Source: Marsupella aquatica (taxonomy: Eukaryota > Plantae > Marchantiophyta). Taken from it: DNA of 64,000 nt. The translations under genes were made by a program, and so were the position numbers. Under the pieces are notes generated by a model, which worked only from the letters and a program-made list of their open reading frames with translations, did no database searches and had not been told where the DNA came from. The DNA is taken from contig OZ316893.1 in NCBI GenBank assembly GCA_973895155.1, positions 18,852,857-18,916,856 on the forward strand. Reading direction: 5' to 3'. Shown here one piece after another: positions 232-49,978 of the stretch (the first letter of the stretch is position 1; each line of letters opens with the position of its first letter).

Positions 232-2999
232 TCACCCACCAGGTAGCGAGATATTGATATCTGTTGCGGTTCGTCGCGCGGAATCGGACTGCGGCGGTTG
301 CCAGCCCCCAAACTGGCTCATGCTGTGCTGGGGATTAGGGGTTCCGTTTCCACCTTGGTGATTGACAGATTGATGACTTGGAGTTCCCCCTTGGCCAGAG
401 GTCTTACTTCCAGATGTTTCCGTCTTTGCAGGACGTGCTGGGAGGGAAACTGCAGCAACGGTCACACCGGGAGTGCCCGTCGAGGGCGATAATCCAATGG
501 AAGTTGTCATCAAGCTCACCATGCTTTCTCCGTTTCCAGCGCCCAAAGGCGATGTTGGCAGTCGATTTTTCACTCCACTATCAGAGACAACGAAACTCCC
601 TACTACTATCTGGAGAAAGAAACAAAGGACAGTTACAATTCGGACACTGAGAAAACGCGTGAGAGTGACAAGAGCAGGCACCCTGCTTGGATTAGAAAGG
701 ATTAGGAAGCACACGCTCTCCAGCTGAAATTATTCCATGATTCCGGATTCACTCGATCATTCGAGGAACATCAGACGTTCTAAGAAGAAAGACGTAAACT
801 ATTCACAAAGGAAACAGATAGACATGAACGAGGCCGCTGAACCAAAACGGGAGCAAGAATGCGCAAATGAGGATAACGGATGCTGCAAGAAGTCTCACCT
901 GAACCGGAGTTGCCGCAACAAGCAAGCCCGATACACTTCCACCCACAACCTTCCCGTCACTTGCAGCTAACGACACGCTCAATCCACCGGTCCTATTCCG
1001 GGCACCATTTACATCCGTGGGAAGGAAAGATCCCGAAAGTGACAGAATCTCGTACCGACCCTGCGCCACTCGACCCGGCCAAATATCCCATCAGATTGAT
1101 TTAGTCTGCAGATGTCTCTCACTTGACCAGACTACGACGAAAGCACTTGACGCGACTTTTCCTCTAGCAGTCGAGAATGTGGAGCACGTCGCTGTATATT
1201 TCATGAGTTCAATTTTGGGGGCTGATTATGACCCTTGATCTCAAACCTGTTACTGCGGATCAGGGAAAAGTCAGCCAGTTTTCTCGGATCGCTGGTCCAT
1301 AATCTTCTTGCGAAGCTCCTCCGATGAAAGCAATGAGGTAAAGCACATTGGGCCTCACCTCGTAAGTGATACTGCCACCATAGGAAGAGTCGTGGCGCAG
1401 TGTCACGTTGGATATAGACCCGTTCGCTGATAGCACGCATACGGCTCGTGGTCCTTGCTGACAGAAGGCAAATATTTTGTTCGCAACATCCTGTCGCGAC
1501 CAAAACCAAGAAAGACATTGAAACTAGGCCCACAGACGCGGAGATAACTTTAGCGTACATCAAAAAATCTGATGTCATAGTAGATTCAAAAATTTCTTGT
1601 GACGTACGAAATCAGCCACTAAACGACCCAGCCACAGTGGGAAGTTTCGGAAGTTTGGCGAGTTGAAGATAATTGTAAACCATGAAAAGAACCTGACGAT
1701 GGCATCGCTTTCTGACCAATTAATTATCAGGGATAAATAGTTCCACGAATTACACTATATAGTTGGAGGGATCCAAGTGAGCCATGTGTGAGCCACCCAA
1801 GGCAGAGGTTCCAGATACATGTGCCAAACACTGACTAGGCATCATTGAGACTCTTCCCCACTTGCTCAAACCCCGCTTCCCATCCGCAAATGACCACAGA
1901 GTAGATTGCCGAGTGCCGAAGACGATCATTCGCGCAAAATTCCATGGTATCGAGCACGTGAGGTCACAGTTAAAAAACAACAACACCAGGCGTGTTTGCT
2001 CACCTCCCCGGCTGCAATGGTAATAACGTGAGGGATGAAGCCACTTCCAGCCGCTCCTGTCAACCAACCACCTGAAAAGATTGCTTAAGATTCATGAGTG
2101 AAAGGGAAAAACGGTAAAAGAACGGAAAAGCTGAACCCCGTATTCCTTCATTAGAATCTGAAGATCCCCGACCCAGAAAAGAAATTCACAAAATAAACTA
2201 GAATGACCTGGGATCCGGAAACGCCGGGATATATCTAAATAAACAAGAGATTCAATATGGAGAACAATAGGAACCGTTTCTGGAAAAGGAAAAAAGACGA
2301 TCACGGCGTCTCCGTCATAACACCCACAAACTGTACACGTAACCTTGCTTGATTAGGTCATAATGCACAACGATAAGGTAGGAGTAACTACCATTTGATG
2401 AAGCTGCAACAAGAAGGAAATCGTCAAACCGTCAGTATTTGATCTTGGAGGAGCAACGATTGTACGCAGTCACAGACATTCAGAACTAGCAGAGCAAAGC
2501 ACCGAACTGTGGCAACGACAAGAGAGGCGGAAGAAACATTACCGAAGGCTGCAAGTTGCTGCTTCTTGCCCGAGCCTGGGGGTCGTCCACGACCGCGTTT
2601 CTCTGAAGGGGAGGTCAGGTCCTTAGTTGGAGCGATGGGGGTGAGAGCGAGTGATGTACCCAGCGTAACGCCACCTCCGTCCGCTCCGGGATACTTACGA
2701 GGCCTCCCTCGCTTCCTTTTCTGAGGATCGGGTCGTGCCACATTGGGCGAACCTATCCCACCAGAGTAAGTTCCCGCTTGCCCAATATTCATGTTCATCA
2801 GATTTTGGGGCGAACTAGCGCCATCTGAACTTGGACTAGCGAGGGAAATGGCAGTTGTCGTTGGCCGCAACGGAGCAGGTGCATGTAATCCTCCACCTGT
2901 ATTTACAGATGGAATGGGCCTCTGCTGCAAGTGAAAGCCTAAGTTGCCTTGCATGCTCCCCCCGCCACCTCCTGGACTAGGTCCATCCCTGCCTTCCAT
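232..2999 (-). CDS. AHL: AT-hook motif nuclear-localized protein (AHL, clade B, two AT-hooks + PPC/DUF296), about 398 aa; exons 2999-2543, 2071-2004, 1490-1359, 1060-899, 609-232
   Basis: Exon 1 has [10 protein letters not shown] and [13 protein letters not shown]-hooks. Exon 2 reads [13 protein letters not shown], exon 3 [32 protein letters not shown]...TYE, exon 4 [13 protein letters not shown]...GGLSVSLA...VVGG, exon 5 IVVGSF. All four introns are GT-AG and exon lengths 457+68+132+162+378 keep the frame. Confidence 0.93.
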
Positions 3000-4740
3000 G
3001 CATAGACTGATCCGCCGGCTTGCTCACTCGAGCTCGGTCAGATCCCAATCGCTGGTCCCCGCTCGCTTCTTCCCTCTGCTCCGCTCTTTGCAACTCCGCA
3101 ACGGACTGCTAACAGGCACTGGTTTCCTTCCCCTACAAGCAAACCAACGATCTCCCTCTCGCCTGCCTCCTCTACGAATTGGTTAAGTGAATGTTCTCCA
3201 GCTCTACCTTAGAACTAAAACTGCCTTGAGATTTCCATCTGCACCTCAGCCCTGAGAAAATGCAGCATCGGTGGCTCACAACATTTGAAGCTTCTGCTTG
3301 AATGCAGCCTGGCCCTGCAAATATCACTAAATTCGCAGATGCTCTGCACCCGCGCACAAACCCACCAACCGTGCACATTGTTAGAATTTATCGTGCTATC
3401 TTCTCTTACATGACTGTCTCGCGGGCTCACGCTTTCCCTCGACGCAGGCTTCCATTTCCTCCCCCTACTCTCTGTGTAAACCCTATCTTGCAACCAATCG
3501 ATCCATCTCCTCGATTGTGTTGTTCAGAGGATTTGCATCTCACTAAAATATTTGCTATCTTTGAGGAGGCAGTTTCCGCGGATCACGATCAGCACACTGT
3601 CTGCGTCGGCCAAATTCCATGACGCGGAAACCTTGCGAGCGAAGTGCAACACCGCCAAAGAAAGTGCAGAATCGGAACTGCAATTCACAACCAACAATAC
3701 CCAGTACCACAACGACCACAGAAAAACAGCGCAGGGAGGTTTTGCTTCGAGAAAAGTGCGAACGAAAACTTACCTCCAAGACAGAATGGGACGGATCAGG
3801 GGATATAACTCACGAGTCCGAGATTGATTATAGCTCAATAAAACAAAGCACCGAGTAAAGAAGTAAACTACCCAATCAGCTGAAAAAAACCGGCCACAAA
3901 TGCTAAATTTTATCTGTCTTTTCTATATTTTCCCGAAACCTCTCGTCAGATTATTTCTCCTTTTTTATTATTCTCTCGCCAAGCTCGACGTTTCTTTCTT
4001 TTCTTCCGGTCCAGAAAAGAAAATCCTCAAGAAAATCACCCCTTCTTCACCCAACTCAGCTAACTCTCGACGGAGAAAATGAACGCACAAGTGCTGTATG
4101 ATCTTCCGTTCATGTATGTGTGCGTATCATAAAAACACCGGCCACTCTTGCTGTCTGCCACTGTCTGCCTGTCCGCACGCTTGCGTTCTTTTTGGCCCGA
4201 TTGCAGTCCATTCTCGGCAATCCAACTAACCGCGGTTACGCCCGACCCTTGAAAGGTGTCCCTACTGCGGTTGGTTAAGGCAGGCGGACCCGCCCCTATA
4301 TTGGTTTCTACTCTACAGTATTACTAGTACTCTACTGTAGGTTCCTTCCGTAACAGCACTTCGCCTACCGCCTACGCCCTACTGTATAGACCGACTGCCC
4401 ACACGCGAGGCGAGTGGGGCCACGTTTCACCACGTGTTATCACCGGCTAACCGGTAGCCCTCGTCGGCATTCCCCGGTGGCTACCCGTGACTGCTTCTGA
4501 GGTGCTCTGATCCTGACTAATTTCAGTAATTTGCCCTTTTTCCCTTTTCCCGGGCACGAAGGAAACCCTCCACTGTATTTCGCGTGCTGCTGTACAGTAG
4601 GTACGAAGTATCCATCTGGTTCCCCCGTCAGGAAAGAACCCCCGGTTTAACCTGACGGGCAAGTTGACGGATTGCCGGGCACGTCAAACTGTCAAATGAC
4701 GGCTCGAAAATAACCAATTTGACGGATATTCCACAATATT

Positions 4741-5290
4741 CTCCCGAACTCACCCATACTCCCCCGGACCCTTCCCAGACTCCTCCCGAACTCACCCGGA
4801 CCCTTCCCGGACTCCCCTAGACCCTTCCCGGACTCCTCCCGAACTCACCCGGACCCTTCCCGGACTCCCCTAGACCCTTCCCGGACTCCCCCGGACCCCG
4901 GTTCGGGGTGGCAGCCAGCCGGGGCCGGGTCTGGGGTCGGGGCTGGGGGAAGGAGGGCGGGGTTTAGAGTCCCGGACTCCCCCGGACCCGAACCCGGACC
5001 CTTCCCGAACTCCCCCGAACTCCCCCGAAACTCCCCCGACCCTCCCCCGAACTCCCCCGAAACTCCCCCGAAACACCCCCGACCCTCCCCCGAACTCCCC
5101 CGACCTACCCTGAACTCCCGGTCCCCCGAACCTTGCCCAAACTCCCCCGAACCTGGCCCAGACTCCCCCGAACCCGAACTCCCCCTCGCCTGAACTCCCC
5201 CGAACTCCCCCGACCTCCCCCAAACCTCGCCCGAACCCGGCCCGAATGTCTCCCGAACTTGTCCCGGCCCGGACTGCTCCCGAACCCGGG
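4741..5290. repeat. C-rich (G-rich on minus strand) tandem/low-complexity repeat
   Basis: About 52-bp unit ctcccgaactcacccggacccttcccggactcccctagacccttcccggact at 4741-4890, then about 10-bp gaactccccc units at 4975-5290. Confidence 0.85.
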
Positions 5291-7620: not shown

Positions 7621-10600
7621 GGAGGCTCATGATCAATGATCAAGCTGAAGGGGTTACAAAACAAGAAGCAACATAAGTGTGCCACAGCCCACACTGCTGC
7701 CAAACACTCTCCCTCATAAGAGCTATACTTAGCCTCTATTGAACTGTTTGATCTACTAGTATAAGCCACAACAAACTCATTCCCCTCATCATCCTTTTGA
7801 GTCAACACTACTCCAAGTCCTACTCCACTCCAATCAATGTGTAGCTAAAATGGTCTCCCTGAAATGGGTCTTCTCAAAATAGGGGATAATGCCAATCTTT
7901 CTTTCAACTCTTGAAAGGCATGCTCTTGGTCATCACCCTAAATCCATTCCTGATCCAACTTAGTGAGCATGGTTAAAGGTTTAGCAAGCTGGCTAAATCC
8001 TTTAACATACTTCCTATAGTAGCTTGCCGATCCCAAGAATCTCGGGGGTTTCACTTCCACAAAAATGGCATATCACGTGCGACGAAGGATAGGGTCATTT
8101 TATTGGTTCTAAGGGAAGACTTAAGAATTTTTGTAGAAGAACAATAGGGTCTTTTAAATTCAATTTTGAGACTTATAAGAATATTAGGGTCTTTTTAATC
8201 CAATTTTTAGAATATTCCAAGAATATTCCAACTTTATAGGGGTTAAAAAATTAATTTTTTTTCTTACATTTTAGGGGGTCCGAGGCCTAAAAACGTCGCA
8301 GGCGATGGGGAGGTCCCCATATAGTGAGACCCCCGAGCCAAGAATGCACGAACTCTACTCACATTGGTAGGACGGGGAATCTGTGTGATGGCCTCCACCT
8401 TAGTCTGCTGCACACCCAATCCCCTTGGGTAGATAGTGTGGCCCAAATGCTCAATCTGGTCTTGGAAGAACTTACACTTGCCAGGATGGAGTTTCAACCC
8501 ATGTTCTCTCAATCTCTCCAACACAATCTGTAAGTGTTGCTGATGTTCTTCCACAATGGAAGAATAGACCAAAATATCATCAATGTAACATCTGACAAAA
8601 TCCAAACCTACAAGAATTCGATCCATGACTCTTTGGAATTCAACTGGTGCATTCTTCAACCCAAATGGTAAGAACAACCACTGATACAAATGATCCTTGC
8701 CATGCAAATCAATTCCTCATAATGTTGTTTTGGACTTGTCAGAATGTCTGATTGGAAGCTGATGGTACCCTGCCCTCAGATCCAATGAACAAAAAACCTT
8801 TGCATGCCCCACAACATCAAAGATCTCCTCAGGTGTGGGCATGGCATATCAATCAGATCTTGTGTGACGATTAATAGGTCGATAATCACCACACATGCAC
8901 CTATTCGTGTAATTGCCATGCACGTCCTTCTTGGCTTGGCTGGCATCATTGTGGCAGATGCATACTCCCCGTATGAGATCTCCACCAAACCAGCCTAACA
9001 AATCCTGAGTTCTGCTCCGAATCAAAGCTCTCTCCATGTCACTATAACGGTATGGTCTATGAAAGATTGACGCATCACTAGCCAATTCAATCTGAATACC
9101 AGGGCACATAGATTAGGGTTATCACATAGATTAGATCCTTAGGATCTGTGGTCACAGTAGGAGCAACATCACCTCCCTATCTCTCTGCATGTGGCATACC
9201 TTGGCCACAACCACCACCTCTATCTCCTCTTTTGTGATCATGTGTGCGTTGTCCTCCTCTTCGTAACTTAGGATGGAGTGAGAAACACCTATCCTTGGTG
9301 TGTCCAAGAGCTCCACAATGATCACACTACCGTTGATCAGGTGCTCAGGCCCCTCCTGGCCCTCTATGGTCAGGGCAATATTGTTACACATGATCCCCAC
9401 CACAGGTCCAATATCCAGACTGTTGTCTAGCATAGGATGACATAGGTCTTTGATTGGTAGATTCTCGTGCAATGAGCTTCTTCCTCTGGCTCTTATGTGC
9501 TGTAGGCTGTGATGTGGGTGTAGATGCAGCCTTGGTGCTTCCTTGGCGAATCCGAAAGTCACCACTTTTTTATTCACCATATTGTATCCATCACCAATGG
9601 CACTAGTGTGATTGGTGATGGATACATCACTAGTGCCATTGGTGCCATTTCAGTGTTGAGTGATGGATACATAATTAGGCGACCAATGCTGCCTCCATGC
9701 CTCAATCTTAACCAAATAAGTCTTCTGAAACTCATGGTAGTCATACATGGGTGGCCCCTTCAAATGCTAAAATAATCCATTTTATGCCATGAAATGGGTA
9801 AATAACGTGGCGTTATGCAATGTCTACATATTGCACCACATATTAAACTCCTGGATAAAGTCATCCAGATCAATTGTGTCAACTGCACTATAATATTGTC
9901 GTGGGCCCTTTGTAGCCCCGTACATCTCTTCCATATCTCACAACAAAGATGCAACCACCTGATGACAAGGAGAACTAGTCACTGAGTCCTTGTCAGAATC
10001 ATTGTCTGAAGCTGCACTGCTGACTGCTACCAATATTCTTGGCCATTAAAACTGTACCCCACTTTGAGTGAAATCGGTCCGTCATCCATTGGGTAGCCCC
10101 ACAGCACCAGAAGAATCCGTGATGACCAATCACAAATGTAGTTATCAATCTAATCTATGTGATAACCCTAATTGGGCAATTTGTTCCTGCCAGCACCACA
10201 AGCACTCACCATGGTGTGTTGGGCATCATTCCAACATCACCATGAGAGAAATACACAGCACAACTAGAGTGTCTGGTTGTAAACCTTAATCACTCCTATG
10301 GAATCAAACGCCCACACAAAACTAACATGACGCGTAGACAAGAAGCATGTGTGGAGAGAGTCCAACAACAAGAATGGATAAACAATAACTTTTCACACCA
10401 AGAGTGATCACAAATCAATCAAACAATGTTCATAACGTTCAATGTAGGGCCTTCATAATAGGCCTCGAGGATCCCATGTCAATTACCCAAGAATCCACCG
10501 CAAATAAGTTCAAATTGAGTATTTAAATGGATGCAGAAGTGAATAAAACCCTTAGGGCCTCATTCCTTGGACACCAAGTGTGAAAGGAATTAAGCATGTA

Positions 10601-10714
10601 CAATGCACCACATAAGAACTAGCTAGTTAAGCACATGAGGGGAAGAATAGTTTTGGGATGGGTGACCTCTCACTTGTCATTATGCACCAAATTTGCCACT
10701 CCAAAATGACAACA
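7621..10714 (-). mobile_element. Truncated, internally deleted Ty3/Gypsy element related to the DNMT-bearing element (gag fragments, RT, part of RNase H, putative 5' terminal repeat ~10158-10714)
   Basis: RT FLPFGLKNAP...RCYIDDIL and RNaseH AYTSRS...YEGECLA. Colinear nucleotide similarity to 36200-37376, 40152-40575 and 51060-51470. Confidence 0.88.
8041..8337. mobile_element. MITE, 297 bp, 15-bp TIR, 8-bp TSD CCAAGAAT
   Basis: Ends CTCGGGGGTTTCACT / AGTGAGACCCCCGAG, with ccaagaat at 8033-8040 and 8338-8345. The paralogous RT site near 36610 lacks the insert. Confidence 0.93.
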
Positions 10715-10739
10715 CTTGCAATTCTCCTCATATATCAGT

Positions 10740-11262
10740 AAGCTGGCTCTTGCTGGCCCACCCGCTCCTGCTCCGCCCTTATGCCCCTCGTCCCAAGTAA
10801 CCACGAGTTGCCTCAAAGACTAGTAAGTTGTGTCTTTAGCCACTTTGCCTGTATTTTGCCACCATTCTTGAAGCTTCCCCTGATGTCTCCAAGGATAGTA
10901 GCCTTCTTGTGCATTAGCACTTGCTTCCACGTCAAATGGCATCCCACCTCAGCACTTACAATTTTCCGCATCCTTTTCTTAAACAGAAAGAAGCTTGTGC
11001 CTCGTGGGCACATATTTTCATCCAGCTCAAGCGCCTTCAAAGAAGATTCTCTTAGCCTTCATTCCTTTCGCTCCTCTCGACTTTCCTTCTTCTTGATTCT
11101 TTCTATTCCACCTGATAGTTTAGGGTCATGTGCATCCGATACCAATTTTGCATTCATCCCCGCCATGGCTTGGGTCACACGAGTGTCTATTCTAGCTCCA
11201 AGTACTTCCAAATAATCAAAATATGTCTTCCCAATGTTTGAACCTACAACGTCCACATTCAA
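10740..11262 (-). pseudogene. Possible decayed CACTA accessory (TnpA-like) ORF fragments
   Basis: Basic, helical ORF pieces at 10813-11040 and 11059-11262 (e.g. LTWKQVLMHKKATIL...WLKTQL) next to CACTA remnants. No diagnostic motif. Confidence 0.3.
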
Positions 11263-11814
11263 AGCACCAGGAAAGTTGTCCTACAAAATGTCAACAATGG
11301 GAGGCAATTGGCAGAAGGATACCTGGCTCTCCCACTTTATCTACAGCCGCTATGTGTACATCATTATTCAATTTTGTGAGTTGCACTACCTCATTGTTGT
11401 CGAGGGCCATGGTCTGGTTGCATTTAATCCAAGTCCCACAACTTCTTCATCAGTCATAACCATATTGTCTTGTACAATCTTATTGAATTGCTTTAGGTGA
11501 GGCCTATGGATGGAGTACTTGTGTGCATAGCATTGACAACAGACAACTAATGCAATCAAACTAGAGTTGCCTTTACAAAGTGAGATGACAAAGATCGGCC
11601 CTAATGCGCCAGTACAAGAATGGGAGTGCATGTCGTGAAAGGAAAATCAATGTCATGGAAGATGTTCACTCCTAGTTGAATGGGTTATCTCAAAACTTTG
11701 TAGGGTTTATGCATAGACTTCCTAACATTTCCTGGATTCAAATCCCGATAGGTAAGTAGTATTATTTTCCATATATCTTTCTAATTAGAAAATTGTGACT
11801 ATCTTAAAGCTCAC

Positions 11815-14800
11815 TTGTGGTTGCAAATCCAATTAGCAATCTTTTGATTCACCCGGCTTTTGTAGTGTTGGCATCTGGAATTTTTGATAGAGGCCGGGCA
11901 GTTTGGACGAAGATACAATCAGAGGAAGGAAAATTTGGACTCATCAGTATCTATGCTCCCAACTCGATTAGTGAACGTGTCCTGTTGTGGAACAAATTGC
12001 TGCACACATTGCCACAGGAGAAATGGATAATTGTTGGAGACTTCAATATGATGGAGCAACAGGATGACTCCTCCGGTTCATCTCCCAGAATTAGGGGTTG
12101 GGAGCTTGATACTTGGCGATTACTGAAACTGCGCTTTGACTTATAGGATGCAAAGGGCATTCTGGGGCACGCCACGGGCTCTAACTTTACATGGAGAAGG
12201 GTGAGAAATGGTAGACTAATACAGTCCCGGCTTGATAGATTCTATCTAAGCAAAAAGGGCCAGTGGTTGGACGAGGTGATCGAGCTAAGGCACGATGGTT
12301 CATCTGCTCTGTCTGATCACGATCCGATCATCCTCACGTTTAGGATGACACCGAGACATTCAATGCCTACTGACGTTCGCAGAGCTACGTACTTTAAAGC
12401 GAACCCGGCTATTCTCAGGAAAAGGGAAAACGTGGAAGCACTCGAAGAAGCATGGGGCGCTGGCGATGGAGGATCAGTGGATCCTCATCTGAGATTTGCA
12501 GATGCTATGCAAAGGGTTAGACGGTGTTACATGGAGCTACAATACTCCCCTGTACCTAGGGAAGAAGAGATGCACCGACTAAGGGCTAAACTCTGTCTTC
12601 TGAAAATGGCAATTATGGATGAATACACGGAAGACACGATTCTCGACTTTACTAACACTGAACAGGGGGTCAGAGAAATGGAGATGGAAGATGCTCACCA
12701 TCATCGGAGGCTCGCTAGAATAAACTGGCTTGGACAGGGCGATGAACCCTCGAAATTCTTTTTTGCAATGGTAAAAGCAAAACATGCCAGAGAAAATATG
12801 GAATATCTTATAGGAGAAGACGGAGAAGAGATTACGGAAGAAAATCTGGTAATAAAAGAAGTGCAGAGACACTGCGAAATGCTCTACACTCCAACGTTTA
12901 CTTTGAATGAGGTACGCAGAGAGATGCTGGAGGCTAGAAGGAAGTTATGTCAGCACACCCACTTTGCTCTTTCCGCTTCTGAGCTTCACAGACTCGAGAA
13001 GCTACCCACTATGCAAGAATTGCATGATACACTACTTTCCCTTCCTAGCGACAAGGCCCCTGGGATTGACGGCATCACTGCTGAGGTGCTACGGAGCTGT
13101 TGGGACTTCATGAAAGACGGATTCTATGAGATGACATGTGAATTTTGGCGGTCAGGGCACATGGCTTTTGGGATCAAGGATGGAGTAATTCGCTTTATCC
13201 CAAAGAAGACAGATAAAAGAAGACTGGGAGATTGGAGAGGGCTCACGATGCTGACAACCACCTACAAGATCATGGCAAAGCTTCTTGCCTTGAGGCTGAA
13301 GATTCATCTACCAAAAATGATTAGTCCACAACAAACAGGCTTCATACCCGGAAGGCACATATTAGAAAACATCTCCCTTACCTGGCTTGCTAGTGACTGG
13401 ATTAACCTCACACAGACTCCTTCTCTATTCCTGCAACTGGACTTTGAAAAAGCATTTGACAGGGTAGACCACTCTTACATCTGGGAAACCATGAACTTGC
13501 TTGGAATAGGATCTCATTTCATCTTTTTAGTTCGATCTCTATTGAGCGACGAATGTTCCAAAGCGCTGGTGAATGGTTTGTGGACAGAAGATATCAGGAT
13601 GAGACGTGGTGTGAGGCAAGGATGCCCCCTCTCTCCTCTGCTGTTTGCCATCTCCACTCAACCTTTCATGGATTTCTGTAATATAGAGATAGCAGCTGGA
13701 AGGCTTCAGGGTCTGAGAATCAATTCATCTCTATCTATTTGCTTCAGATTATTTGCGGATGATTTAGGGATGTTTATTCCTGCCACTGCCATAGCTTTTG
13801 AACAAGCCAAAAATGCTATCCACTGCTATGAATGTGCTACTGGAGCCAAATTGAATTTGAAAAAATCAATTATTATCCCCTTTGCTCTGGATGTGATCCC
13901 TGACTGGCTCAGAGACACTGGATGTCGAATAAGCGAAACTGGAGAGATACAGAAATATCTGGGTGCCCCCTTTGGAGTAGAAATTCTAGAGACACAACTA
14001 CACAATTTCTGTCTCGATAGAATTAGTGCACGACTGTCATCCTGGTCATCATGTTTTCTATCATTTATAGGAAGGCTGCTGCTAATCAAACATGTTTTAC
14101 AGGCAATTCCTATCTACCATATGATGTTTATTCGATCTTCTCAGGTATTAGCGAAGAAGTTGACAAAACTTAATAGGACTTTCCTATGGGGAACGAATCT
14201 GCAAGGAGGGAGGAGGATCCCTCTAGTGGCGTGGGATAAGCTGACAAGACCAAAGCTGGAAGGTGGACTTGGACTCAAGGACTTTCGGAGTCACTCTGAT
14301 GCACTTTTATGCAAATGGTTCACAGGTGCATTAGATGATCCTAGCTCTGAGTGGGCTCAAATGTACGCAAAGAATCTCAGGCTAACCAAATGGCGTAACT
14401 ACAAGACGGTGAGAAGAAGCCTGTACTCTTTGAGTGACAAATTACTATTGAGCACTCCTAGGCACTTTGGAAAACTTGTTTATACAGGGAAACTTTGGAG
14501 TGCATGGGAGATGGCGAGAGAACATCTGATCTTTTGCCCAGGCGGGGGAGCGATACCTGGGCACTGGGGATTCGAAGACTTGGTAAGGAGTATGCAGGGG
14601 TTCTATGATTTACCTGAAGAATGCCTCATGGAAATTATTAGAGCGTTTGGGAGTTTGGGGATGAGAAGAGTGGAGGATCTGTGGTCTACTAGGAATCGGA
14701 ACTGGAAAGACATCTCTAGAAGACTGCATAGGATGAGAGGACTTTCCTCTATTGCCAGGACGCATTGCATTTCTTTATATAGTGTGATATGCTGCTCTAC

Positions 14801-15845
14801 TGTTGGGGACCGGGAATCTGGTGCTGTTGCTCGACTGTGGAAATGGAATGATACTGAGATTGAAATGAGGAGATTTACCACAACAAATCTGAGGATGTAT
14901 GAGATGCTGCGACCTAAAGGCTCTGATTGGGAAAGGCTTAATCGTATATGGATTGTGACACTGAATGAGCAAGAATGGAGCGCAGTCTGGAAGGGGTTGT
15001 GGTATTCGGACCTCTCTACGCGAGCTAAGATTTTTATATGGCAAATTATTGCTCAAGGGCTATTCTCTGGTGTTCGGGCCCTGAGAATTGGGAAATCGAA
15101 TGGATGCTGCACAATGTGCACCTCTAGGATAGAAACCTTACCACACTTATTTTGGCAATGTAAGCATGCTAGCAATGTCTGGACTGAGATGAAGAGATGG
15201 ATGAGAGGAGAGCTTATCAGAAACTTTACAAGTATTGTTGACCTGCTGTGCTCCATCCAGGGACGCTCACCTCTTCTATCATTGAGAGCCTTCATAATTT
15301 ATCAGGTTTTGTGGCACTTGTGGAATGCTCGGAATGTACAGGTGTTCGAACTATCACCCTACCGCTCTTTTGATCCGATGCAAATCATTTCCGAGTGCAT
15401 GGATCACATCACGGCGGTGTCGGCGGGAGCTACCTCCCCCTCTTGTAGGAAACAGGAACGGCTGCATACAGCTTTGAAGCTCCTAGAAACAGAACGTAGG
15501 GTAATTTTAAGGGCACAAGTAAGAAGAATAGTGACTGTTAGAAGCTGAAATGGATCTTCGGAGCAGATAGTGCTTTGCTGAGCAGTTCTTGGATGACACT
15601 GCTTTGCTGAGAAGTTCTTGGATCCTGAGATTACCTTGGGGGTCACTCCCCTGCTTGAGTATGTAGTGGACATTTAGGTGAGCTTTTGGTGGTGTGCTTT
15701 CATCTGCTTAAATTGGCCCATGATTGGTCTACTCTGTTTTTCTTTCCCTCTGAGGACTTCTTTTGCCTATGGGCCTGCTGATTCCCTCTCCGTGGGGTTC
15801 AAGCGGAATAAATGAAATTAAAATTTAAAAAAAAGAAAGAAAAAA
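11815..15845 (+). mobile_element. L1-like LINE, 5'-truncated, with 3' UTR and A-rich tail
   Basis: ORF2 homology from 11817, AATAAA near 15807, A-tail about 15827-15845. No TSD identified. Confidence 0.9.
11817..15548 (+). CDS. LINE ORF2 (APE endonuclease - reverse transcriptase - C-terminal zinc finger); one in-frame TAG at 12144-12146
   Basis: Endonuclease SIYAPN, VGDFN, SRLDRFY, SDHDPI. RT KAPGIDG, LDFEKAFDRV, GVRQGCPLSPLLF, LFADD, KYLG. zf-RVT CTMC...ETLPHLFWQC. ORFs 11817-12146 and 12201-15548 are in the same frame. Confidence 0.93.
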
Positions 15846-15899
15846 GTCTCTGTGAACTCTGTTTCAATCTACTGCCCATGTCTCCTCACATTGTCAGTT

Positions 15900-18800
15900 T
15901 AGCAAACATGGCAAGTGTCACTGATGAGTCAGATTCCCTATTAGAAAGCACTGACAACTCATCATTAAGTACTACAGGCGATTCATCCTCTGATGAGAAC
16001 CTTGGCTCAGTTTCTTGCGTAGACTTTACTGGATTACAAGTCCCTTGCACTTGCACCAAATGCATGGGCCTGGTTTAGCAAAGACCATGGGATATTACTA
16101 CCCACCTCAGTCAATATGGGACATATCAGCATCAATCAAACCAAAGCAATCCAAGGGTAAGCATTTCATTTACACACCTGTAGCAAAGTGAAAGCCTTTC
16201 ATGATTGTATATAGATTTGTCATGTCACAAAGTTGATTCAATATGGTTTATAATTGTATGACTCATTTTACGCTGCACAGGGTCACGTGAAGCGTGCTAA
16301 ATTGCGGCCTGTTGTAAGGACAGAACTATCCTTCACAATCAAACATGCTTTCCAAGGTGCAATTGATGATGCCTTTTCGGCATTCCAATCACGTCCCAAG
16401 CCCATAGCCCCTGTTTCCAATACTGCCTCACAACTAAATGGACCATGTAGACGTGCCCGAACGGATACACATTGGCTCAAGCACCAAAGAACACACTCAA
16501 GGAGTCCACTTGCAAAGGAGGCTACAATTGGGTCCTCAGTGAGCAAAGTTTGCCCAATAAAGGGTGTGCCAATCCGAAGAAAAACCAAGGAAAGGATAGT
16601 GAATTTGGATTTGACATATTCCTCCCCTGCTCATACTAGAGGAAGGGGTGTCAGGAATGATGACAAATAATTTGGTTGTACTAAGTCGTCATGGAGAAGT
16701 TGAGGTGAAGGGGGAGTGTGCTCCCCTTTACAAGAGGTTTCACCCATTGTATTGGGGTGTTCCTCCCGTCATCCCAATTCATGAAGAGGTCTCCATTTGG
16801 CCGGGGTCGACCATGGATAGTTAAGAGCATCTCAATTGATAGTGCTAATGTTGGACTAGGTGTCTATGCTTGTCAGGATATTACAGTACATGGAGATAAA
16901 TGTGTGGAATTGTTTCCCTATTGCGGGGCTGTCTATGATAGGGGAACGTGGCATGTCCTCACCCGTGCACATCCATCTTTCAAGTGCTACAGTCTCAATT
17001 GTGATGGATACCAGGGTTCAAACATCCCCCAACAGGAGCTAAGATATATAGATGGTGACCCAATGCGTGCTAGTAATATATATGGGTACATAAATAGTTC
17101 TGTGGGTTTGAAGGGAGGAAAGAAATGTGCAAATGTAGAGTGAGAGTCTATGGCCAGCCAAATTCCATGTTGTGACTGTAGCCATTTGCTCTATTGTTGT
17201 AGGAGAGGAGCTTATAGCTCACTATCGATGGAACAAATGAAACCACTATCTTATGATTATTATCAACTGAATTGTTATAATTAGCCGCGACTGTATTTGC
17301 ATATAAATTCTAACTTGTCTCATTTGTTTTTGCATAGGTACCCCACCCTTTGGTGCTTCCCCATAGCTTGCTGAGGCTATACATCAACATGGGCATGAAA
17401 TTGTGTCTGAGTCCACTGATTCAAGTGCATATGACTCCTACAACAATGACGATCTTGAGGTAGAGAGCATCTCAAGCGATGTTGATGCTGAGATAGAAGA
17501 AATGGATGAACATGAGCCCCCACAAGTGGAGTTGGAGGATGAAGAAGCCACTATGGTGTTTCTTGATACATACTACCCGAGATACTACCCTCCCCAAAAT
17601 GTAAATGAGCTTGGACCATTTGAGAATGGGAATGCATACGAGAAATGGTGGTGCCAAATTGAGAAGGAGGCACGACAACCTCTGTACGAAGGGGCAGAAA
17701 CTTCTTGGTTGTCCTACATTTTTCTCCTCTTCAATTTGCAAACTCAGCATGATGTGCCAAATATATTCATGCACAAGCTATTTAGCCTGTTATCAAGGAA
17801 GATACTCCCCAAAGACAACAATGCACCACCTACAGGGGTGGACGCTTGTTCTATATTGTCTACCATTGGAATGGACTATCAAACCATTCATGTTTGCCCC
17901 AACAATTGTGTCTTGTACCGTGGGAAGTATAGACATTGATAAGATGTCCACCTCATGTGTAATTACAACCTCATGCGCTTATGGAGGGAGTTTTGGCTGA
18001 GTACGAGGATTTGGGTGCACTCATCCTAAAGGCCATTTTGCTATGGACTATGCACGATTTCCCAGGTATTGCATGCTCATTTAGTGAATTCAAGGTGCAG
18101 ATCATTTCATGCCATTTATACTTAAATTTGTTCAGAGGATAATCCATACTCATAAACCAGTGCATTTGTGGGTGGCCTAATTTTCTCCATTATACAGGGT
18201 ATGGTTACATATCTGGTCTTCAAACGAAAGGGTACCGGGCTTGTCCCCTTTGTGGAGATGAATTGCAATCCAAATGGAGCTCAGATCACCGCAAATGTGT
18301 TTACATGGGCCATGCCAAGTACCTGCCCCTTCATCATCCATGGCGTTCAGATCCATAGCTAAATGGTGGTAATGACCACATAAACACAGTTCCAATGCCA
18401 CATCAAAACGGGCATTGAAAGGATGTAGAGTATTGGTTGCAAACATGAGACTGGATGTGAAGTGGTACAATACCAGCTGATAGGTCGGGCATGACCCGTT
18501 GTTCGGTTTTATTTGACCTTCCATATTGGAAGGTACATGTAGCCTTTAATTATGCCAATATATGTCGTTGGTAATTCACACTATAGTTTTTAAATTCCAA
18601 ATGCAAGATTTCAAATGTATAACTTGTGCACCTTGCCATGCCATACGTTTCACATGATCTTCTAATTTGGCATTTGCTTGATCCCATGCACATTGAAGGG
18701 AATATCGCTAAATCAATTGTTTGTCACATATATAGTATGTGAGCGAGAAGGTTCTCCCAAAGATGAGTGGGGATGTCGACGGGCTTATGAAGCATTTGGT

Positions 18801-21337
18801 GTACACTATTACACCTGGGTCTAAAGTAGGCCCATTGGAACTGACTTTATTCAACTAGCCCCTTGGGTCATGACAGTTTCAGAGCGACGATAGTTCATGA
18901 AGAGAGTTCATGAGATGCGAATGCCAACAGGATATGGCTCCAATTTTAGGAAAGCGTTTAACACACGAGGGACAAAGTGGTCTGTGTCCCTAAAGACGTA
19001 TGATTATCACAAGCTCCTACGTACACGATGTCTTCCCCATAGCTCTGCATGGGATGACCAGCAAAGCATTGCGCACAACGATTAGTTCTCTTTCTTCAAT
19101 ACTGATTTAAAACCTCTTTTACCTCTTGGGCATATTCATCCCACCTCAACACTATTTTATGGGACTGTAGGATATCCATTGCTTGTGCTAATGATAGATC
19201 ATGATTGTTTGTCATTTTTGTATAGGTGGATATGCTCCAAGGAGGTGAATGTGAGGAAAATTCCAGTGATGAAGATCAAAGCTACAGAGGTGCTATGTAT
19301 GTTGGAGAAGGCACTTCCACCCTCCTTCTTTGATATTCAAATCCATTTATGGGTACACTTGGTGGAAGAGGTTGAAATTTGTGGCCCAATGCATTCCCGA
19401 TGGATGTACTGGTTGGAGAGGTACATGGGCACATTGAAGAACTTGGTCAGTCAACTGGCTCATCCAGAGGGGAGTATGGCAAAAGGATATTTGCATTATG
19501 AGGCTATGTTTTATTGCTCCCACATTTTGCAGCAATTGGACATAGAAACACCAACAGCTTGGATGGATCCGGATGTTGAGGATATTTGTGAGATAGAGGA
19601 GGTACTACTTGGTGCAGGGGAAAAGTTGCAAAATGACAAATGTGGAGTTTGAGCAGATCCATACCTTCATTCTCCATAACTCCAAGGCTCTTTCACCTTG
19701 GTTAGCTTACTACAATGAAGAGAAGGCCTCGTGGAGGCCAAGGGCAACTTGGGTTTTCCCCAAATTCCAGAAGGTGATATGCACCGGCTGATGTATTCCA
19801 AGTCATAGTTAGACTCAAAGTGAAAGTGAAAGTTTATGTGGTCTTTAGACTGACTTCCAAACTTTTCCTATGTTACAAGTACATGCAAACCAAGGTGGAT
19901 TTGCTTGCTCAACTCCATGCAGATGGGAAGGATATCAGTTTTGTCCCAGGATCGATGGTGATGTGCGGATTCTGGTCCGTGGGCCTTTGTATGAGTACAA
20001 AAGCCACTCCAAATGTGGGCCCAAGGTTGGTATTTTGCGTGAAGTCTCTAGATGACAAGAAGAAGAGGACATCTGATGTTGGTATTAGTTTAGAGTTCAT
20101 GATCGACTGCATGGCAAAGTAGTGCTCATGATCAGCATCTAGAGGATGCCACACTCCCATACTTTGGAAACATTCGGAAAATTCTCAATTTTGATTTCAA
20201 GTATACACAAACAATATTTTTGTGTGAATGGTATAGGGTAAGTGCAAACTAATACATTCAGAAAATCTCATTTTAAGTATGCATTTACAAACATATATAA
20301 AGGCACATATACTCACTTGACTTCCTGATTGCCCCTGACAGGTTCAAGCTGTAGGAGATCATGCAACACTAGCACATGATGAATGTGGACTTCTAAGGGT
20401 AGATACAAGAAGTGTGCTAGGTTTTGATAGGGGTTTTAATGAGCCATGTGTATATCCATCACAGGTGGAACAAGTATTTTTTTTAAGAATCTAGTTATGG
20501 CAAATTGGAGCTTTGTAATTTGTCATGTTCCTAGGGGCCGTAGAGGTTTTGACAAATTGGGGACTATTAACAGGCAGGACATTCATGCCTCTGATGATGA
20601 GGCAGAGTAGACTTTAAGATGGAATCCATGGGCATGAATAGAGTTTATTTGAACTTTGGGAAGCAACTATAGGCCAGGCATGTGAATCACTCTATACGTT
20701 GTTGTGAAGTTTGTGGGCAATGTTGGGAAAGTCCGGACTTTTGTCTGTCAAAAGAACAATGCGCGTACAATGTGCTAATAAAACACTACAATCATTACCC
20801 AAAAACGCTCAATTGTCATGGGAACAACCAATGGAATCGGGGATGAAATGTGGTATATGTCGACTCCCCAAAGTTTCTAATCCTGAATGCTTGAAACTCA
20901 GTTTTTTGGCGCAAATCACCCGAACATTACAATCTATACTAAAATTAGGCCTAGGAACTATATTAAGGTCCATCTTCTTGTTTAGAATCACAATACAGGC
21001 TTTCAAAACATAGAAAATTCACCTACGGTTAACAACTTTCTTTGAATTATATCATGCAAGCCAAGTACTTACTATCCTATCACCCCTCAAAGGTTCAAGT
21101 CAAAATTCTATCTCTATCAATAGTTACAAAGAGAAATGTTGGACCTATCTAGATTGCAGGCTATGAGGACCCTTCCATTGTAACCATATTATATATCTTA
21201 CATAAAGATAGATATACCCAAAGAGCATAGGTTCAGTAATGGGCTTTGAGCTCCACAAAAGGTGTTGACTGCAAAATCGTTTTTGGGCAAGTACTCCACA
21301 AAATGTGCTAGTGTTCCACCTTTTATGGTGAGTAGTG
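15900..21337 (+). mobile_element. Decayed CACTA/EnSpm element (transposase pseudogene plus SET cassette); right TIR ends at 21337, left end not found
   Basis: PCTCTKC near 16040, IHVCPNNCVLYRG, LWTMHDFPG, DPMHIEGNIAKS, MPTGYGSNF, WMYWLERYM..LK (DUF4218-like). Terminus ...ccttttatggtgagtagtg is CACTACTCACC on the minus strand. Confidence 0.82.
16800..17240 (+). pseudogene. SET-domain (lysine methyltransferase-like) cassette inside the CACTA element
   Basis: VKSISIDSANVGLGVYACQDI...ELFPYCG...YIDGDPMRASNIYGYINSS...ANVE, then TGA and a frameshift, then HVVTVAICSIVVGEELIAHY. This matches the SET pattern GxGxxA / (R/G)(F/Y)IN(H/S)S / GEELxxxY. Confidence 0.75.
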
Positions 21338-22461
21338 AGGCATGGAATGAGGCTTTTATAGTGGCAGGTGTGGTTTAAAGAGTTTAACTTTTTTTCCGGC
21401 AATGGGAACTCTCAAGTCTACACCATCTAGCTCTTGAAGTGAATATATATGTAGCATTATCATGTACCTTTCTCACCACATAAGGGCCAAACCACCTCTT
21501 TGATAACTTTCTGGTGGCACTATGCTAGTTGTCTAGGCTACTATCATAGACTAGTACCCAATCATCTTCTTAAATAGGCCTTGGTCTGAGCCTATGCCTC
21601 CTATAAAACCTTTCCTTATTCCCTAGCCTTGCCTCCCGTAGTTTTTTGAGTGCTACCTCAATATCCTCAGAGCGTCGCTCAAGCTATCGGATCCTCAATG
21701 TCAATAAGTCGTCCCTACTAAGACCATCTTCCCATGGTAACACACTCCATGTAGGAATTGTCTCCTCCACTAGCATGATCAGCTTTTGTCCAAACATAAG
21801 TTCTGCTGACATAAAACCTATTTACCGAGCTATGTGTGGTTCGATCTACCCACAACGCAAATGACAATATCTTTGGCTACACATGTATGCTACCATTACA
21901 AGCTTTTACCAAAGCCATAATGATAGGAGAATGTCTTCGCTCACGCTTACCATTCCCTTCTGGATTACAGGCAGTTGTCAAGGCAAGCTTTATCCCTAAC
22001 CTTTCAAAAAACTGTCGAGCCTCTTGTGAATCAAGTTCTCCTCTATCAGCTGTAATCTTCCCTATGCATCCATAGCGACAAATCACATCTTCAAGTAAAA
22101 AATGACATAAATTTTTTGTGCTCTTGGTCCTAAGTGCCCTTCCCTCAACTTGATTGGTTAGGTCTCCCCTTGCTAAAATCACATACCTCATTTGTGAGAT
22201 CCCAAGAGGTAGAGTTACCAAATCAACAACCCATTTGTAATGCATGGCTAAAGGGTAGGTGGGATGTAGTCCATCTCAATGCCGAATGTTTGAGTAAACT
22301 TGACAAGTTTCACAAGTACTCACAAATTGGACTACATCCTTGTACATACCTGTCCACCAATGTTTTTCCTTTAGTTTGACAAAAGTTGCCCAAACTTCTC
22401 TATGTCCTGCCCATAAGCTTTCATGAAACTCCTTCATCAGCTTTTGTTGTGTCTCTGTATC

Positions 22462-24963
22462 TATGACAGGCCCCAAACCCAGTAGTAACTTAGTGATAAC
22501 TTATAATTGCGTATATAGGTAGAAAGACAAGTAGGTGTAGTAAAAATGTTTGGATTTTCAAATTTTTTATTTTTGTTAGTTCTAATAAATGGATGCGACA
22601 ACCGGAGGCCGAAGTTGAGAGGGGTGTCGGGCGGTGATGGATGACAAGGGAACCATTGAGGGGGTACAAGGAGGCCACAAGGCAGCCCAAGGACTTGGCG
22701 CCAAGGTGTGGGCATCTTGGAGGGGTGGGGGCTGGTCGGAGGCTCCACGTAAGGCGCAAAACGGGAAGAATAACCAAAATATAGAAAACGTTGAAACTTA
22801 AAATAGACTTTTCTGCGCTAGTACTATTCCAAACATGGTCATGTTTGGATTCATTTTGAAGCCCTCAATGAGCCCCATGCGAAACTGAGGTTCTCTAGTT
22901 GATTTTAGGTCTATATCAAACAGTGACATCTTGAGGGACCTCAATGCACGTAAAACTGCAAAATAGGCAATCTTGGAGTAGTGATGGTGGGAGGGCCCTT
23001 AGAAGGAAGGGGTTCCCACACTTGTGTTCCCCTTCACCCTTTGTGTGGTCCTCACATGTTTTTTTGCTCTCTTTCCCTTCCCCACCGTAGAAGGGCCACC
23101 ATAGAAGGGGCCCTCACACTTTCTTCCTTCCCTTTTTCTTTATTCTCACTTGTGGGGTTTCCATCCATACCTAAACCCTAAACCCTTTCCCTCTTGTGCT
23201 TGCTTTCAACGTGTGTACGGACCCTGGTTGTACGAACATCAGATTTTCAACCATCTCAAAATCAGGAGTCTACGGGCTTGTTGGAAAGAGCTCGCCGAGC
23301 TGAATCCAATGATGTGTCACATGACCGGAGCTAAGACGGGGGAGATACAACAGATCATGTTTTTTTTTAGTATACGAGAGTTTTGAGGCTGTACGGATGT
23401 CCGTACGGTAGGAGGTCCCGACTTTGCAATAGAAGGAGGAGGTAGCAGCATATAAGGGGAAACCGTGATATGTATTTTTCAAAGCCAGGGCCCCCTGGTG
23501 TTGTACAGACAAAACGGCGGGAGACGATGCCCCTTGAAAACTTAAACGATCATATCTTGGCCGTTTGACCTCCATTTTGTGCACCATTTACGGAGCCGTG
23601 ATCAAGAAGAGGAGGGCTCTTCAGATCTGTTTCGACAATTATAGGGGCCCCCTCCTTTTATAACAGACCGGTGGTGGCGATCAGGAGGATTGAGGCTGTC
23701 AAGCCAGGGCACCGTGAGTGAGAAGGAGAAGAGTAAGATGTTGGAGAAACAGTTGCAGGAGACTCGTAAGTCATCACGGGAAACCCAAGCTGGTCACGGT
23801 GTCACCGTATCAACTAGTCACGGTGCCAACATTTCATCACCCTCATCATTACCAGCGGAGGCTCCATCGAGTCACGAAATCACGGTGCCAGGGATGCCAC
23901 CTCGATCCGTAAACCCGGGGACTCCTTTGGCTACTGGCCAGGTCTTACCTTTGCAGTTGCAGGGAGGTGAAGAGGCTGCTTTATGGAAGGACACTATTAG
24001 CCAAGGTTATGTGAAGGCTTGGCAAGCCTTGGCTGCATTGAGGAGGCGGAGCACTTCCGGTCGGACTCCCCCGGTACGGCAGGTAGGAGTGATGCCTCCC
24101 CTTCTGGGGAAAGCGGTGGAGGTGAGGATTCCAGGGGTGGAGCCCTGGTTCAGTAAGTGAGTCAGGTGAAGACTAGTGTAGGGCCTTGCTTTCCATGCAC
24201 TATGGATTGGATGTTAGTACCAACGAAGGCACCGTTGATACCGTAGTGGGCTAGGGTTTTTCACAGCGTGTGTGTGCCACGCTTTAGGTTAGTTTATCTC
24301 TTTGATAATTTTGGCGGCGCCGCTAGGGTTGTCGCCGTTGTTGCCACTCCGTGAGGGGTGCTTTGGTGTTTTTTTTAGTATTTAGGGGGGAGCCCCGTTG
24401 TGAGAAAGGGGGGGGAACTCAGTCTAGTGTTGGTGTTAGGGAAGTTAGCTCATAGCCAAAAGGGGAATTCAAGCCAGAGTAGTGAGGTAGAGGTGTAGCG
24501 CTTGCCCGAGTGAGGCAGGAGTTGGACAAACGGCAGGAGGCCGGGTTGTCCTTGCAATGTGTTACCACTTTTTGCCAAAAGATATGGATTTGGTTTGATT
24601 CCTCAAGTTTTGGTGTGGCGTTATCTTTTTTGGTTCACGATTGTGTTCTTTCCCCAAGAAGTGTCTAAGGAATCCTTGCACGGTTTGGTCAACCATGTGA
24701 GTAGGAGGGGTGGTGATAGCACTCCACCAACGACCAGTAGGAGTGTGTGTGTGGCGTAGTCCATGGGACTTGATCAAAAGCAGAGGGACTAGTCGGTAGA
24801 CTTGATCAAAAATTACATTTCCGGGAGCGGAAATAAACATACTCATCCTACATGCAATAGAATCCTAATAGTGTCCCTCCACGTTCCCGTCATACGATAA
24901 CAAACGATTTTAGTAGGAGTAAATACGTAATTGTTGTGTAAATCGTTTGATAACCAGGTGACA
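22462..24963. mobile_element. Solo LTR, about 2.5 kb, 5-bp TSD GTATC
   Basis: gtatc|tatgacagg ... ggtgaca|gtatc (5' TG apparently mutated to TA). Removing it restores the host pol frame ...LRVVGDT-ETQQKL. Confidence 0.82.
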
Positions 24964-25052
24964 GTATCACCAACTACTCGTAGTGGAACCCCCTTGACCT
25001 TCTTTGGTTGCTTCCAAAGAACTCCATCCCTAAAAAAGTATCCATAGGCCTT

Positions 25053-26533
25053 AGTCGCAGAACTTGACTACCTTAACACTTAGCTCCGGCGTTGCTGACT
25101 CCGATGCCGAGCTCCCTTATGGTCTAGGCACGGATAGGCCATCCGGGGAGGACTTAGCATGAGGAGACTTGTGGCAATGAGACATGGCACTGGCAAAGGC
25201 AAAGCGCCAAGCTGGTGACACACACTAAGGACTTAGGCTAGCTGGGAGCTAGTCGGGTCAAGGGGAAAAGGGGCCAGGCTCAAGGTCGACCGTCCAGACC
25301 CCAGACAGACTTTGAGTTCTAAGGGCTTGAGTGTGAGCTCCTCTTGGATCCAAGGCCAATGGAGTTGACGCCATGTGCAACGGACGCTTGGGGCGAGAGT
25401 TATGGCCCGATCCGGGTTTGGCCAATTGGGGACCCCAAGCGGCGATGAGACCTGGGGGTCTAGGCATGAGCACTGGGTCGGCCCGATCACAACGGGCTAA
25501 GGCCCTCCGCTTGCGGACGCCTAACGAGAGAGTTATGGGCGTTGCCAGTTGATATATGACATGCCCAGTATGAGTGATAGGGTCCGGGTTGGGAGCCAAA
25601 AATTTAGAGACCAAAGCTGGTCCGGGGGTGGCAGGTCTCCAGAAGCATATATGAGGGGAGTGGTGTCTCCCTGGGGGCTAAGGGCGAGCCGAAGTCGTGA
25701 GCCGCGGGGGTCGCGACACTAAGGGAAAACACCAAAGAAAAATGACGATATCCTCTCAACGGGAAGTCTGTTGGAGGCCTTCTTGGGTGCGTTGGAAAGC
25801 TCTCAAGGAGGGCTACCTCCTTTTGAGATCATCTTGGTCTGGGGGCGCCATAGGTGCTCAAAGTTTGTGGGTGTTATCTCATCCGCTTGCCAAATCCTTC
25901 CAAAATAGTAGCCAAACTGCGTTCAGTCTCCCAAGGGAGCTTGCGTTGGGGAGGCAAGGCCAAGTAGGCATGGAGGTTGAGGTCCATGGGTGCTTGGCCC
26001 CTAGACCATCAGTGGGGCAAACCGGGAGTTGGTTGCTAGAGTCGGGCTATTCTGGTCCCAACATGTTGGGATACGCTATGCTAATTGGGCCATGAGCATA
26101 TCTTGGGGTCAGGGCGGTCAGTTGGTGATGGATAGGTACGAGGGGGGAACCCAGGCCGCGCCCAAGGAAGGAGTTGTTATGGACAAACAGTGGGCGTACG
26201 TGGGTTCTAGTTCCAGCTTATGGCGTTGGGAGGACCTATCGCTGACCTACTTACCAATGTCTGTTGAACTTGAGTTAGGACGCTAGACTTGGAGAGATCT
26301 AGATCGTGAAGGGTTACTTATCGAGACGCTTGGTTTCTTGTGCAAACAATGAGGACCGTTAAGTAGCGATTGTGTTAGAGAGCAAGTGCGGCTTCGTATC
26401 GGAGGGGCCGCTGGTGGTGCAAGGGGCACTAGGTTGCTTGCTCGAGGTATTCCGTGGAGGCATTCGGGCACCAGGGGCATTTAGGCGTGGGTGTTGGGAT
26501 TGGTGAGGGCGCTGGGTAGCAAGGTCCACCACT
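25053..26533. mobile_element. Non-coding 1.48-kb element with AGT...ACT termini, 5-bp TSD GCCTT (copy 1)
   Basis: gcctt|agtcgcagaacttg ... caaggtccaccact|gcctt. Removal restores KKIRRKA-YGYFFRDG in the host pol. Homologous to 53772-55536. Confidence 0.88.
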
Positions 26534-37446: not shown

Positions 37447-37696
37447 TCAAAGTCTCTCACCCCCTGTCAACTTAGGACCAATTTGTGGCTCCCAACTCTC
37501 CATCAAAGCTGTGATGTCTTCCTTCGGGGTTGAAGAGATAGTCGGTGGTTGCTATTTAGCAACAATTTGAGCAGTCCCAACCTGCTCAACAATCTGTCCT
37601 GCCTTGGCCAATCCTGCCATAGGTCCATGGACTGTCTGCTCGCCCCCAGCTGTGGTCGCTACTGTCTCAGTAGACCGCAAGCTCACCAATGGACGA

Positions 37697-38720: not shown

Positions 38721-39125
38721 ATAGGAGTAGTATCTAGTGGTGAAAGAGTCACTGGTCCATTTGCAGTTGACTGTTCTGCTCCTGATTGCGGTGTAAAAGC
38801 ATGACGCCATGCATCATGTATCAATCGGGCTGCACTTTGTGGCAAGGCCTGCCCAGTACCCCATACTGGTGTCACAACACTATCAATGGGAAATCCATGC
38901 ATCAAGTGTTCCTCATGTGCCTCCTCCACCGTAGGAACATCTGCTGCATGTGCATTACCCTTAATCAAATCATCAGCTCCAGTAATCAAACTATTGAATG
39001 CTGCCAAAGACAATAGTGCAGATTTGGGGCCTCCAATAGGTCCACTAAATTGCACTGGCAATTGGCTCAATCGAGCATCTCCAGATTGCCAATTGGGTCG
39101 GTACGACACCGATTCATTCCAAAAA

Positions 39126-39430: not shown

Positions 39431-39449
39431 CTCCAAAAGGCCCAACTAA

Positions 39450-49955: not shown

Positions 49956-49978
49956 ATATATATATATATATATATATA
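49956..49978. repeat. (AT)n microsatellite
   Basis: Run of AT dinucleotides. Confidence 0.9.

Follow-up and report, generated by a model that had tools for sequence, protein, structure and literature searches.

A stretch of DNA of 64,000 nucleotides (the window) carries on its + strand a dead, truncated member of a divergent subfamily of a bryophyte-range CACTA transposon lineage with a conserved SET exon. In several hosts this exon is conserved between a Cys-motif exon and the transposase, and the pattern of its conservation makes it very probably a selected part of the element family. We lean toward reading the window element as a dead CACTA copy whose conserved SET exon is likely spliced, in living members, to the first exon of the transposase, and would there provide the element's own lysine methyltransferase, marking the chromatin of the element itself.

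Exon 1 of the copy is predicted at 15908-16156 (+) on the basis of its translation and a GT donor at 16157. It has a Ser-rich start (ATG at 15908) and a C-x-C-x-x-C...H motif (CTCTKC at 16046-16063), and is interrupted by a premature TAG at 16076. A Cys-motif profile made from nine relatives matches 16037-16132 (E 2.6e-06), and the Sphagnum protein P0087 aligns with exon 1 in tblastn (E 4e-04). (PF13963, the N-terminal transposase-associated Cys domain of Pfam, has no match in this exon of the window; among 79 relatives it matches one, at E 0.031, below cut-off.) Intron 1 (16157-16280, +, GT...CAG), predicted from sequence alone, leads into predicted exon 2a at 16281-17240 (+), comprising a variable linker, a pre-SET stretch, SET and a stop of its own (TGA at 17238-17240, +); a phase-0 acceptor, an open linker frame and pieces matched by tblastn define this exon, which would be the terminal exon of a SET isoform and is broken here. 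The exons of a CACTA (TnpD-type) transposase, also broken, extend over 17338-20491 (+), where Pfam and tblastn recognize an acidic N-terminal part, Transposase_21 and DUF4218 (PF02992, E 1.2e-11; PF13960, E 6.6e-30).

The donor at 16157 and the acceptors at 16281 (SET exon) and 17338 (transposase) share phase 0, a placement suited to alternative splicing with the transposase; the original prediction had named alternative splicing as a possibility. There is good reason, from these splice sites, to expect two isoforms from one transcript, exon 1 being joined either to SET (with its stop at 17240) or to the transposase from 17338. The phase-0 frame at 17338 fits the point at which the transposase exon starts in two models from Sphagnum (shuffle p 0.001 and 0.0035), in a test that is uneven: the Riccia protein P0090 slightly favors another frame (p 0.043 vs 0.12) and four of seven models fit no frame. 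By this splice-phase test the transposase exon starts at 17338, and the start at 17403 first given for the transposase body is abandoned. At the acceptor of the SET exon several short, loose-ended contigs (runs X2 and X4) converge on 16234-16290, a short stretch that is common to other places in the genome.

The SET signature motifs are found where they had been reported, on the + strand between the Cys motif and the transposase, with the stop at 17240: translation of the window places GLGVYA at 16853-16870, YINSS at 17087-17101 and GEELIAHY at 17202-17225. The proposed cassette (16718-17240) retains these motifs and the stop but neither its unity nor its left boundary: the segment is split over three frames with no single reading frame, the conserved part begins at ~16666 and the exon at 16281. 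The frame of GEELIAHY differs from that of GLGVYA and YINSS, and a TGA at 17141 precedes it. A profile of 29 intact relatives, run against the six frames of the window, matches three pieces: a conserved pre-SET piece in one frame (16666-16800, +, E 3e-07; 44-51% identical to P0002, P0003, P0005 and P0007 in tblastn); the SET core in a second (16805-17140, +, E 1.4e-42, also recognized by phmmer and Atlas), which holds the GxG motif, FPYxG, IDGDP and N-I-x-G-Y-I-N-S; and a C-terminal piece in a third (17145-17240, +, E 1.6e-07), with GEEL..Y and the stop. The sole other match listed for this profile has an E of 0.35.

A frameshift near 16665 parts the linker from the pre-SET piece, four surplus bases lie between the latter and the SET core, and a TGA that ends the core, together with a frameshift and codon loss, separates it from the C-terminal piece. 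At least nine codons are deleted 5' of that last piece (7 residues between the flanking conserved columns, vs 16-32 in 43 of 43 relatives). Exon 1 is thus damaged by a stop, and the SET exon by three frameshifts together with a further stop and a deletion. The SET exon is dead in the window copy and the protein cannot be made from it, which disposes of a working enzyme encoded at this site. The frameshifts and stops are real in the DNA, because contigs from two studies (X2 and X4, one of which may be the source sample) are identical to the window at 16476-18100 and 16261-18100, respectively, with 0 differences; assembly error, considered as a cause of the SET breaks, is unlikely on that ground. 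(Runs X1 and X3 gave no contigs over the locus, and positions 15900-16233 lack contig cover in all of the runs X1-X4.) In the transposase, a check of 8 exon stretches turned up 7 stops; frameshifts are present as well, and ~160 residues are missing relative to P0041.

A search for the Pfam SET domain (PF00856), proposed as a check, falls short on the window and succeeds on some of its relatives. The largest unbroken SET piece of the window has no Pfam SET match, and a read-through with X at the break scores 17.4 bits (E=0.006), below the cut-off of 22.4; on the other hand, a Pfam SET match at E<=0.05 is found in 35 of the 63 proteins that phmmer retrieves with the SET core (best E 4e-28), with 16 scoring above the curated cut-off, and 10 of 16 further relatives also match SET (7 above cut-off). 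All but two of the 63, which are repeat artefacts, fit one family profile (61/63), and family members are 26-53% identical to the SET of the window. An Atlas search with the SET core puts SET clusters in the top three places at 0.92-0.94, with a modest number of shared features (128-141 of 256). The Atlas neighbors are mostly phage-labelled SET clusters, and these labels are no sign of the segment's origin. Relatives were not found in phage records; 37 pattern matches in viral contigs and 44 in prokaryote genomes gave 0 confirmed relatives each, and a metagenome scan gave one locus from 217 matches, at 1104 nt too short for context.

Structure prediction, also proposed as a check, finds the SET fold in a model (pLDDT 89.9) of the intact relative P0003, which is 46% identical to the window SET. 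Its best Foldseek match is SET8 (E 3e-07), and all of the matches listed are SET proteins. In VIA the best row is a PRC2/EZH2 chain (Z 12.4, rmsd 2.8, 138 aligned residues), tied with COMPASS (11.9) and SET8 (11.7); with SET7/9 the values span 11.2-12.4, and the chains of these structural neighbors are 14-20% identical to P0003. A search of PDB sequences with the window SET piece returns 0 matches; the family profile finds nothing there stronger than E 0.02, nearly all of its matches being SET proteins. As modelled, the family of the SET segment has the SET fold. No solved SET subfamily stands out (<=24% identity, Z tied), and therefore the substrate is not readable from structure.

GxG, a motif-II Asn and GxEL..Y with its C-terminal Tyr are hallmark motifs of SET domains, and canonical motif II reads RFINHS (R-[FY]-I-N-H-S). 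The corresponding family motifs are GxG, F-P-Y-x-G, D-G-x-P, N-I-A-G-Y-I-N-S and G-x-E-L..Y. The two Gly of GxG (95% and 95%), the motif-II Asn (37/43), the Glu (43/43) and the C-terminal Tyr (40/43) are conserved in the family, and all are present in the window. Motif II is mostly G-Y-I-N-S: Gly takes the place of the canonical Arg in 40 of 43 relatives, and in all 43 the canonical His gives way to Ser, Asn or Gly. In the 40 of 43 rows measured, the proteins end 2-27 residues past the C-terminal Tyr and this tail has 0-1 Cys, so that a post-SET zinc site is lacking. The family, with a core of ~190 residues and a family-specific pre-SET stretch, has the SET fold, GxG, motif-II Asn and GxEL..Y in common with SET8/KMT5A, MLL/COMPASS, EZH2, SET7/9, PRDM and LegAS4, but differs from them in its low identity (<=24%), its G-Y-I-N-S, its own pre-SET stretch and its want of post-SET cysteines. 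It is not assignable to any of these, and is separate from the canonical host SET1, E(z), SUV39, ASH1 and SET8 subfamilies.

Conservation of SET, which the original prediction had proposed examining, is seen at the level of the family. Across the 43 of 80 relatives that span the whole core (37 were left out), 49 columns are >=70% conserved, and the window retains 43 of the 49; the parent of the window copy was therefore under selection until the copy died. More than 60 clusters with <50% mutual identity retain the SET motifs, and their linkers are unalignable. In Sphagnum-type copies (23 full-length of 59 rows) departure from the majority affects 9.0% of cells in the linker, 2.8% in the pre-SET stretch and 5.7% in SET, a mild contrast between linker and SET in a sample biased toward annotated open frames. 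In a tree the window SET groups with P0065, P0003 and P0021 (support 96/95), and this group is nested in a set that includes Riccia families (97/95); the Sphagnum clade stands apart (100/100). This placement, together with an identity of 36-40% to the Sphagnum sequences, assigns the window copy to a subfamily different from that of Sphagnum. Its nearest relatives sit on contigs of 1.1-1.4 kb.

Among 30 family proteins looked up for their source, those with a named organism belong to Riccia sorocarpa, Calypogeia fissa and six species of Sphagnum. The transposase pieces of the window find matches in five of 150 proteins compared, and all five (four from Riccia, one from Sphagnum) also hold SET; Pfam Transposase_21 is present in P0041 and P0090. 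(The gene models that fuse SET and transposase were predicted automatically, and are a sign of adjacency and not of a transcript. A word-based homolog search, a weak method, found no fused longer forms, but phmmer and clusters did yield fused models.) The Cys-motif exon opens 14 of 77 family proteins, 8 of the 14 coming from the training set of the profile, and the order of the exons in the window is also that of Riccia and Sphagnum. A single cluster from Sphagnum comprises 360 members at 90% identity, scattered over many chromosomes of several species as a transposon would be. That SET is transposon-borne is thereby upheld, in the form of one SET-fold family conserved beside the same type of transposase in several hosts. 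P0006, P0015, P0084, P0087 and others are annotated publicly as host 'SET domain-containing protein' in Riccia and Sphagnum; many such Riccia and Sphagnum proteins are likely parts of transposons and not host genes.

The ends of the element are another matter. The reverse complement of CACTACTCACC, which had been put forward as a terminus, occurs once, at 21327-21337, inside a small palindromic repeat of ~160 nt (21220-21378, unstranded). A second copy of this repeat lies at 63859-64000 (86% at 63891-64000; at 21363-21378 a 16-nt arm is reverse-complementary to 63859-63874). The palindrome is probably a separate MITE-like element, and CACTACTCACC, unconfirmed as a terminus of the SET-CACTA, was set aside. 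No left end is found in the window with probes of 14-30 nt and up to 2-4 mismatches, nor is a terminal inverted repeat or a target duplication for the SET-CACTA copy. A LINE ends ~60 nt upstream of its ATG, with no target duplication detected. The SET-CACTA copy looks truncated, and in 9001-26000 nothing matches the TnpA (PF03004-type) frames of the second CACTA element described below.

The window is plant DNA dense in mobile elements. The LINE (11808-15548, +) is 5'-truncated and has RT and zf-RVT in ORF2 (12147-15548), an open frame of 1133 codons; its CpG o/e of 0.52, vs 0.31-0.37 for the SET-CACTA, is less depleted, and the LINE is therefore probably the younger. The second CACTA (40575-50537, -) is bounded by clear CACTAGAAGAA ends and a GGA target duplication, and has a DUF4218 transposase, to which that of the SET-CACTA is 30% identical, and a TnpA-like frame (PF03004, E 4e-04); SET is not detected there with the family profile, whose best match has an E of 0.35. 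In a retroelement at 35758-40572 (-), a C5 DNA-methylase frame (38255-39190; PF00145, E 2e-08) that is broken lies upstream of RT and RNase H frames, and a shorter relative of this retroelement is present at 7622-9554. The original prediction had spoken of a second chromatin writer in the window: there is one in the form of this methylase frame, but it is broken and belongs to an element other than the SET-CACTA. The retroelement resembles KnitGypsy-Dnmt3 of Klebsormidium, as that element appears in the available part of PMC5890265, in a host that is here apparently a land plant. An exon of an AT-hook (AHL-type) gene lies at 2424-3023 (-), with a C-rich tandem array of 10-11-nt units (4741-5289) upstream of it, and inverted-repeat elements are present at 9112-10172, 57060-57570 and 61745-62682, the last with 155-nt internal tandem units.

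In the scheme that we favor for living members, the Cys-motif exon 1 would be spliced to either the SET exon or the transposase. The SET enzyme, having its N-terminal Cys finger in common with the transposase, would be brought to the element and methylate a histone lysine on its chromatin, and the element would stay expressible. SAM-dependent lysine methylation by intact members, such as CAK9871772.1 and CAM6082608.1, is a probable, predicted activity. Its assignment to a lysine of histone H3 in the chromatin of the element itself, keeping the element expressible despite silencing, is the weakest step and is offered tentatively, at somewhat less than even chances. Rather doubtful is the broader proposal that an old land-plant CACTA lineage (of mosses, liverworts and the present host) acquired, in place of TnpA or in addition to it, an alternatively spliced histone methyltransferase from a SET family of its own, which a Cys finger guides and which marks the chromatin of the element so as to resist silencing. 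One point against the favored scheme is a motif II without the canonical Arg and His. This is not decisive against activity, because LegAS4 of Legionella, which methylates H3K14 according to a source available in part, also lacks that His in the alignment.

The same altered motif II, in a minimal SET with neither post-SET Cys nor reader domains, can be turned to a different account: the SET isoform, though real and selected, would tune transposition directly, either by acting on something other than a histone (the transposase, or a silencing protein of the host) or by non-catalytic binding of methyl-lysine or SAM. A first exon common with the transposase would co-locate both isoforms, and the family is equidistant from histone and non-histone SET enzymes. 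We consider this unlikely, if worth keeping in mind; the top structural neighbors, though tied, are histone enzymes, and GxG, the Asn and the C-terminal Tyr are kept family-wide, as a dead domain need not keep them. It is less likely still that SET writes a repressive mark, of the type found at H3K27 or H3K9, on the element that carries it, for self-restraint and persistence instead of escape from silencing. The long duration of the family across mosses and liverworts would suit such restraint, and the best VIA row is indeed a PRC2/EZH2 chain (Z 12.4), yet it is tied with COMPASS and SET8, so that no structural signal distinguishes this account, and the hundreds of near-identical copies of one Sphagnum family fit activity equally well.

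That the SET segment is a captured host fragment or an unrelated insertion in an intron, passive and decaying, might be supposed from its broken state in the window, from the observation that no contig of >=80% identity except the copy itself spans it, and from the many family matches that come without genomic context. Yet the transposase of the same copy is broken too, Riccia, Sphagnum and the window agree in their exon order, none of the host SET subfamilies is close, and the SET motifs persist in the >60 divergent clusters whose linkers do not align. Passive capture is accordingly very improbable: the segment does have SET matches, is present in its relatives and is not a neutrally decaying host fragment.

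A precedent for the predicted splicing of the SET-CACTA is maize En/Spm, in which alternative splicing of a single CACTA transcription unit yields both TnpA and TnpD. Two proteins from one unit would likewise be made here, to judge from the splice phases; unlike in En/Spm, the second is a SET-fold protein. A SET on a transposon of the EnSpm/CACTA superfamily is also described, in the available text of bioRxiv 10.1101/2025.02.11.637652, for the red-algal Plavaka elements: PAG2, one of three accessory genes, has SET (PF00856) fused to an adenine DNA methylase (PF01555). The two cases are alike, as far as that text goes, in that SET has long been kept on the transposon and its function is only proposed; they differ in that SET is here an exon inside a Transposase_21-type gene, and PF01555 is not among the Pfam matches listed for the 79 relatives scanned. 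SET genes are further known, from the parts available of these sources, in HarbingerS and Phytophthora MuDR families (cited in PMC12730594) and as captures by Helitrons (bioRxiv 10.1101/2025.02.11.637652). These too are DNA transposons bearing a SET histone-methyltransferase gene; HarbingerS and SET-MuDR belong to other superfamilies and hosts, the transposase linked to SET here being of the PF02992/PF13960 type.

Of the 775 active plant CACTA clusters in Table S6 of PMC12973397, one is listed with a SET accessory protein, with no species given in the part available, and no discussion of this cluster was found in the available main text. It may be the present SET-CACTA family, because the survey, by the same text, includes six Sphagnum genomes. 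The term 'SET domain' is absent from the Sphagnum genome paper (PMC9946827), and the available text of PMC11982613 has nothing on a SET-bearing CACTA. In a literature search that left Repbase and most subscription journals outside its scope, no description of a bryophyte CACTA with a SET exon was found.

Transposon-borne SET genes have thus already been catalogued, with functions that, in the available texts of PMC12730594 and bioRxiv 10.1101/2025.02.11.637652, are only proposed. The window copy contributes a divergent subfamily and is itself useless experimentally. The family to which it belongs is small and confidently folding, occurs in Sphagnum in hundreds of intact copies, and apparently has its first exon in common with the transposase; these traits make the writing of histone marks by a plant transposon on its own behalf directly testable. 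Among the classified repeats of Sphagnum, CACTA ranks first in abundance (6.8%; PMC9946827), and any such effect could therefore be genome-wide there.
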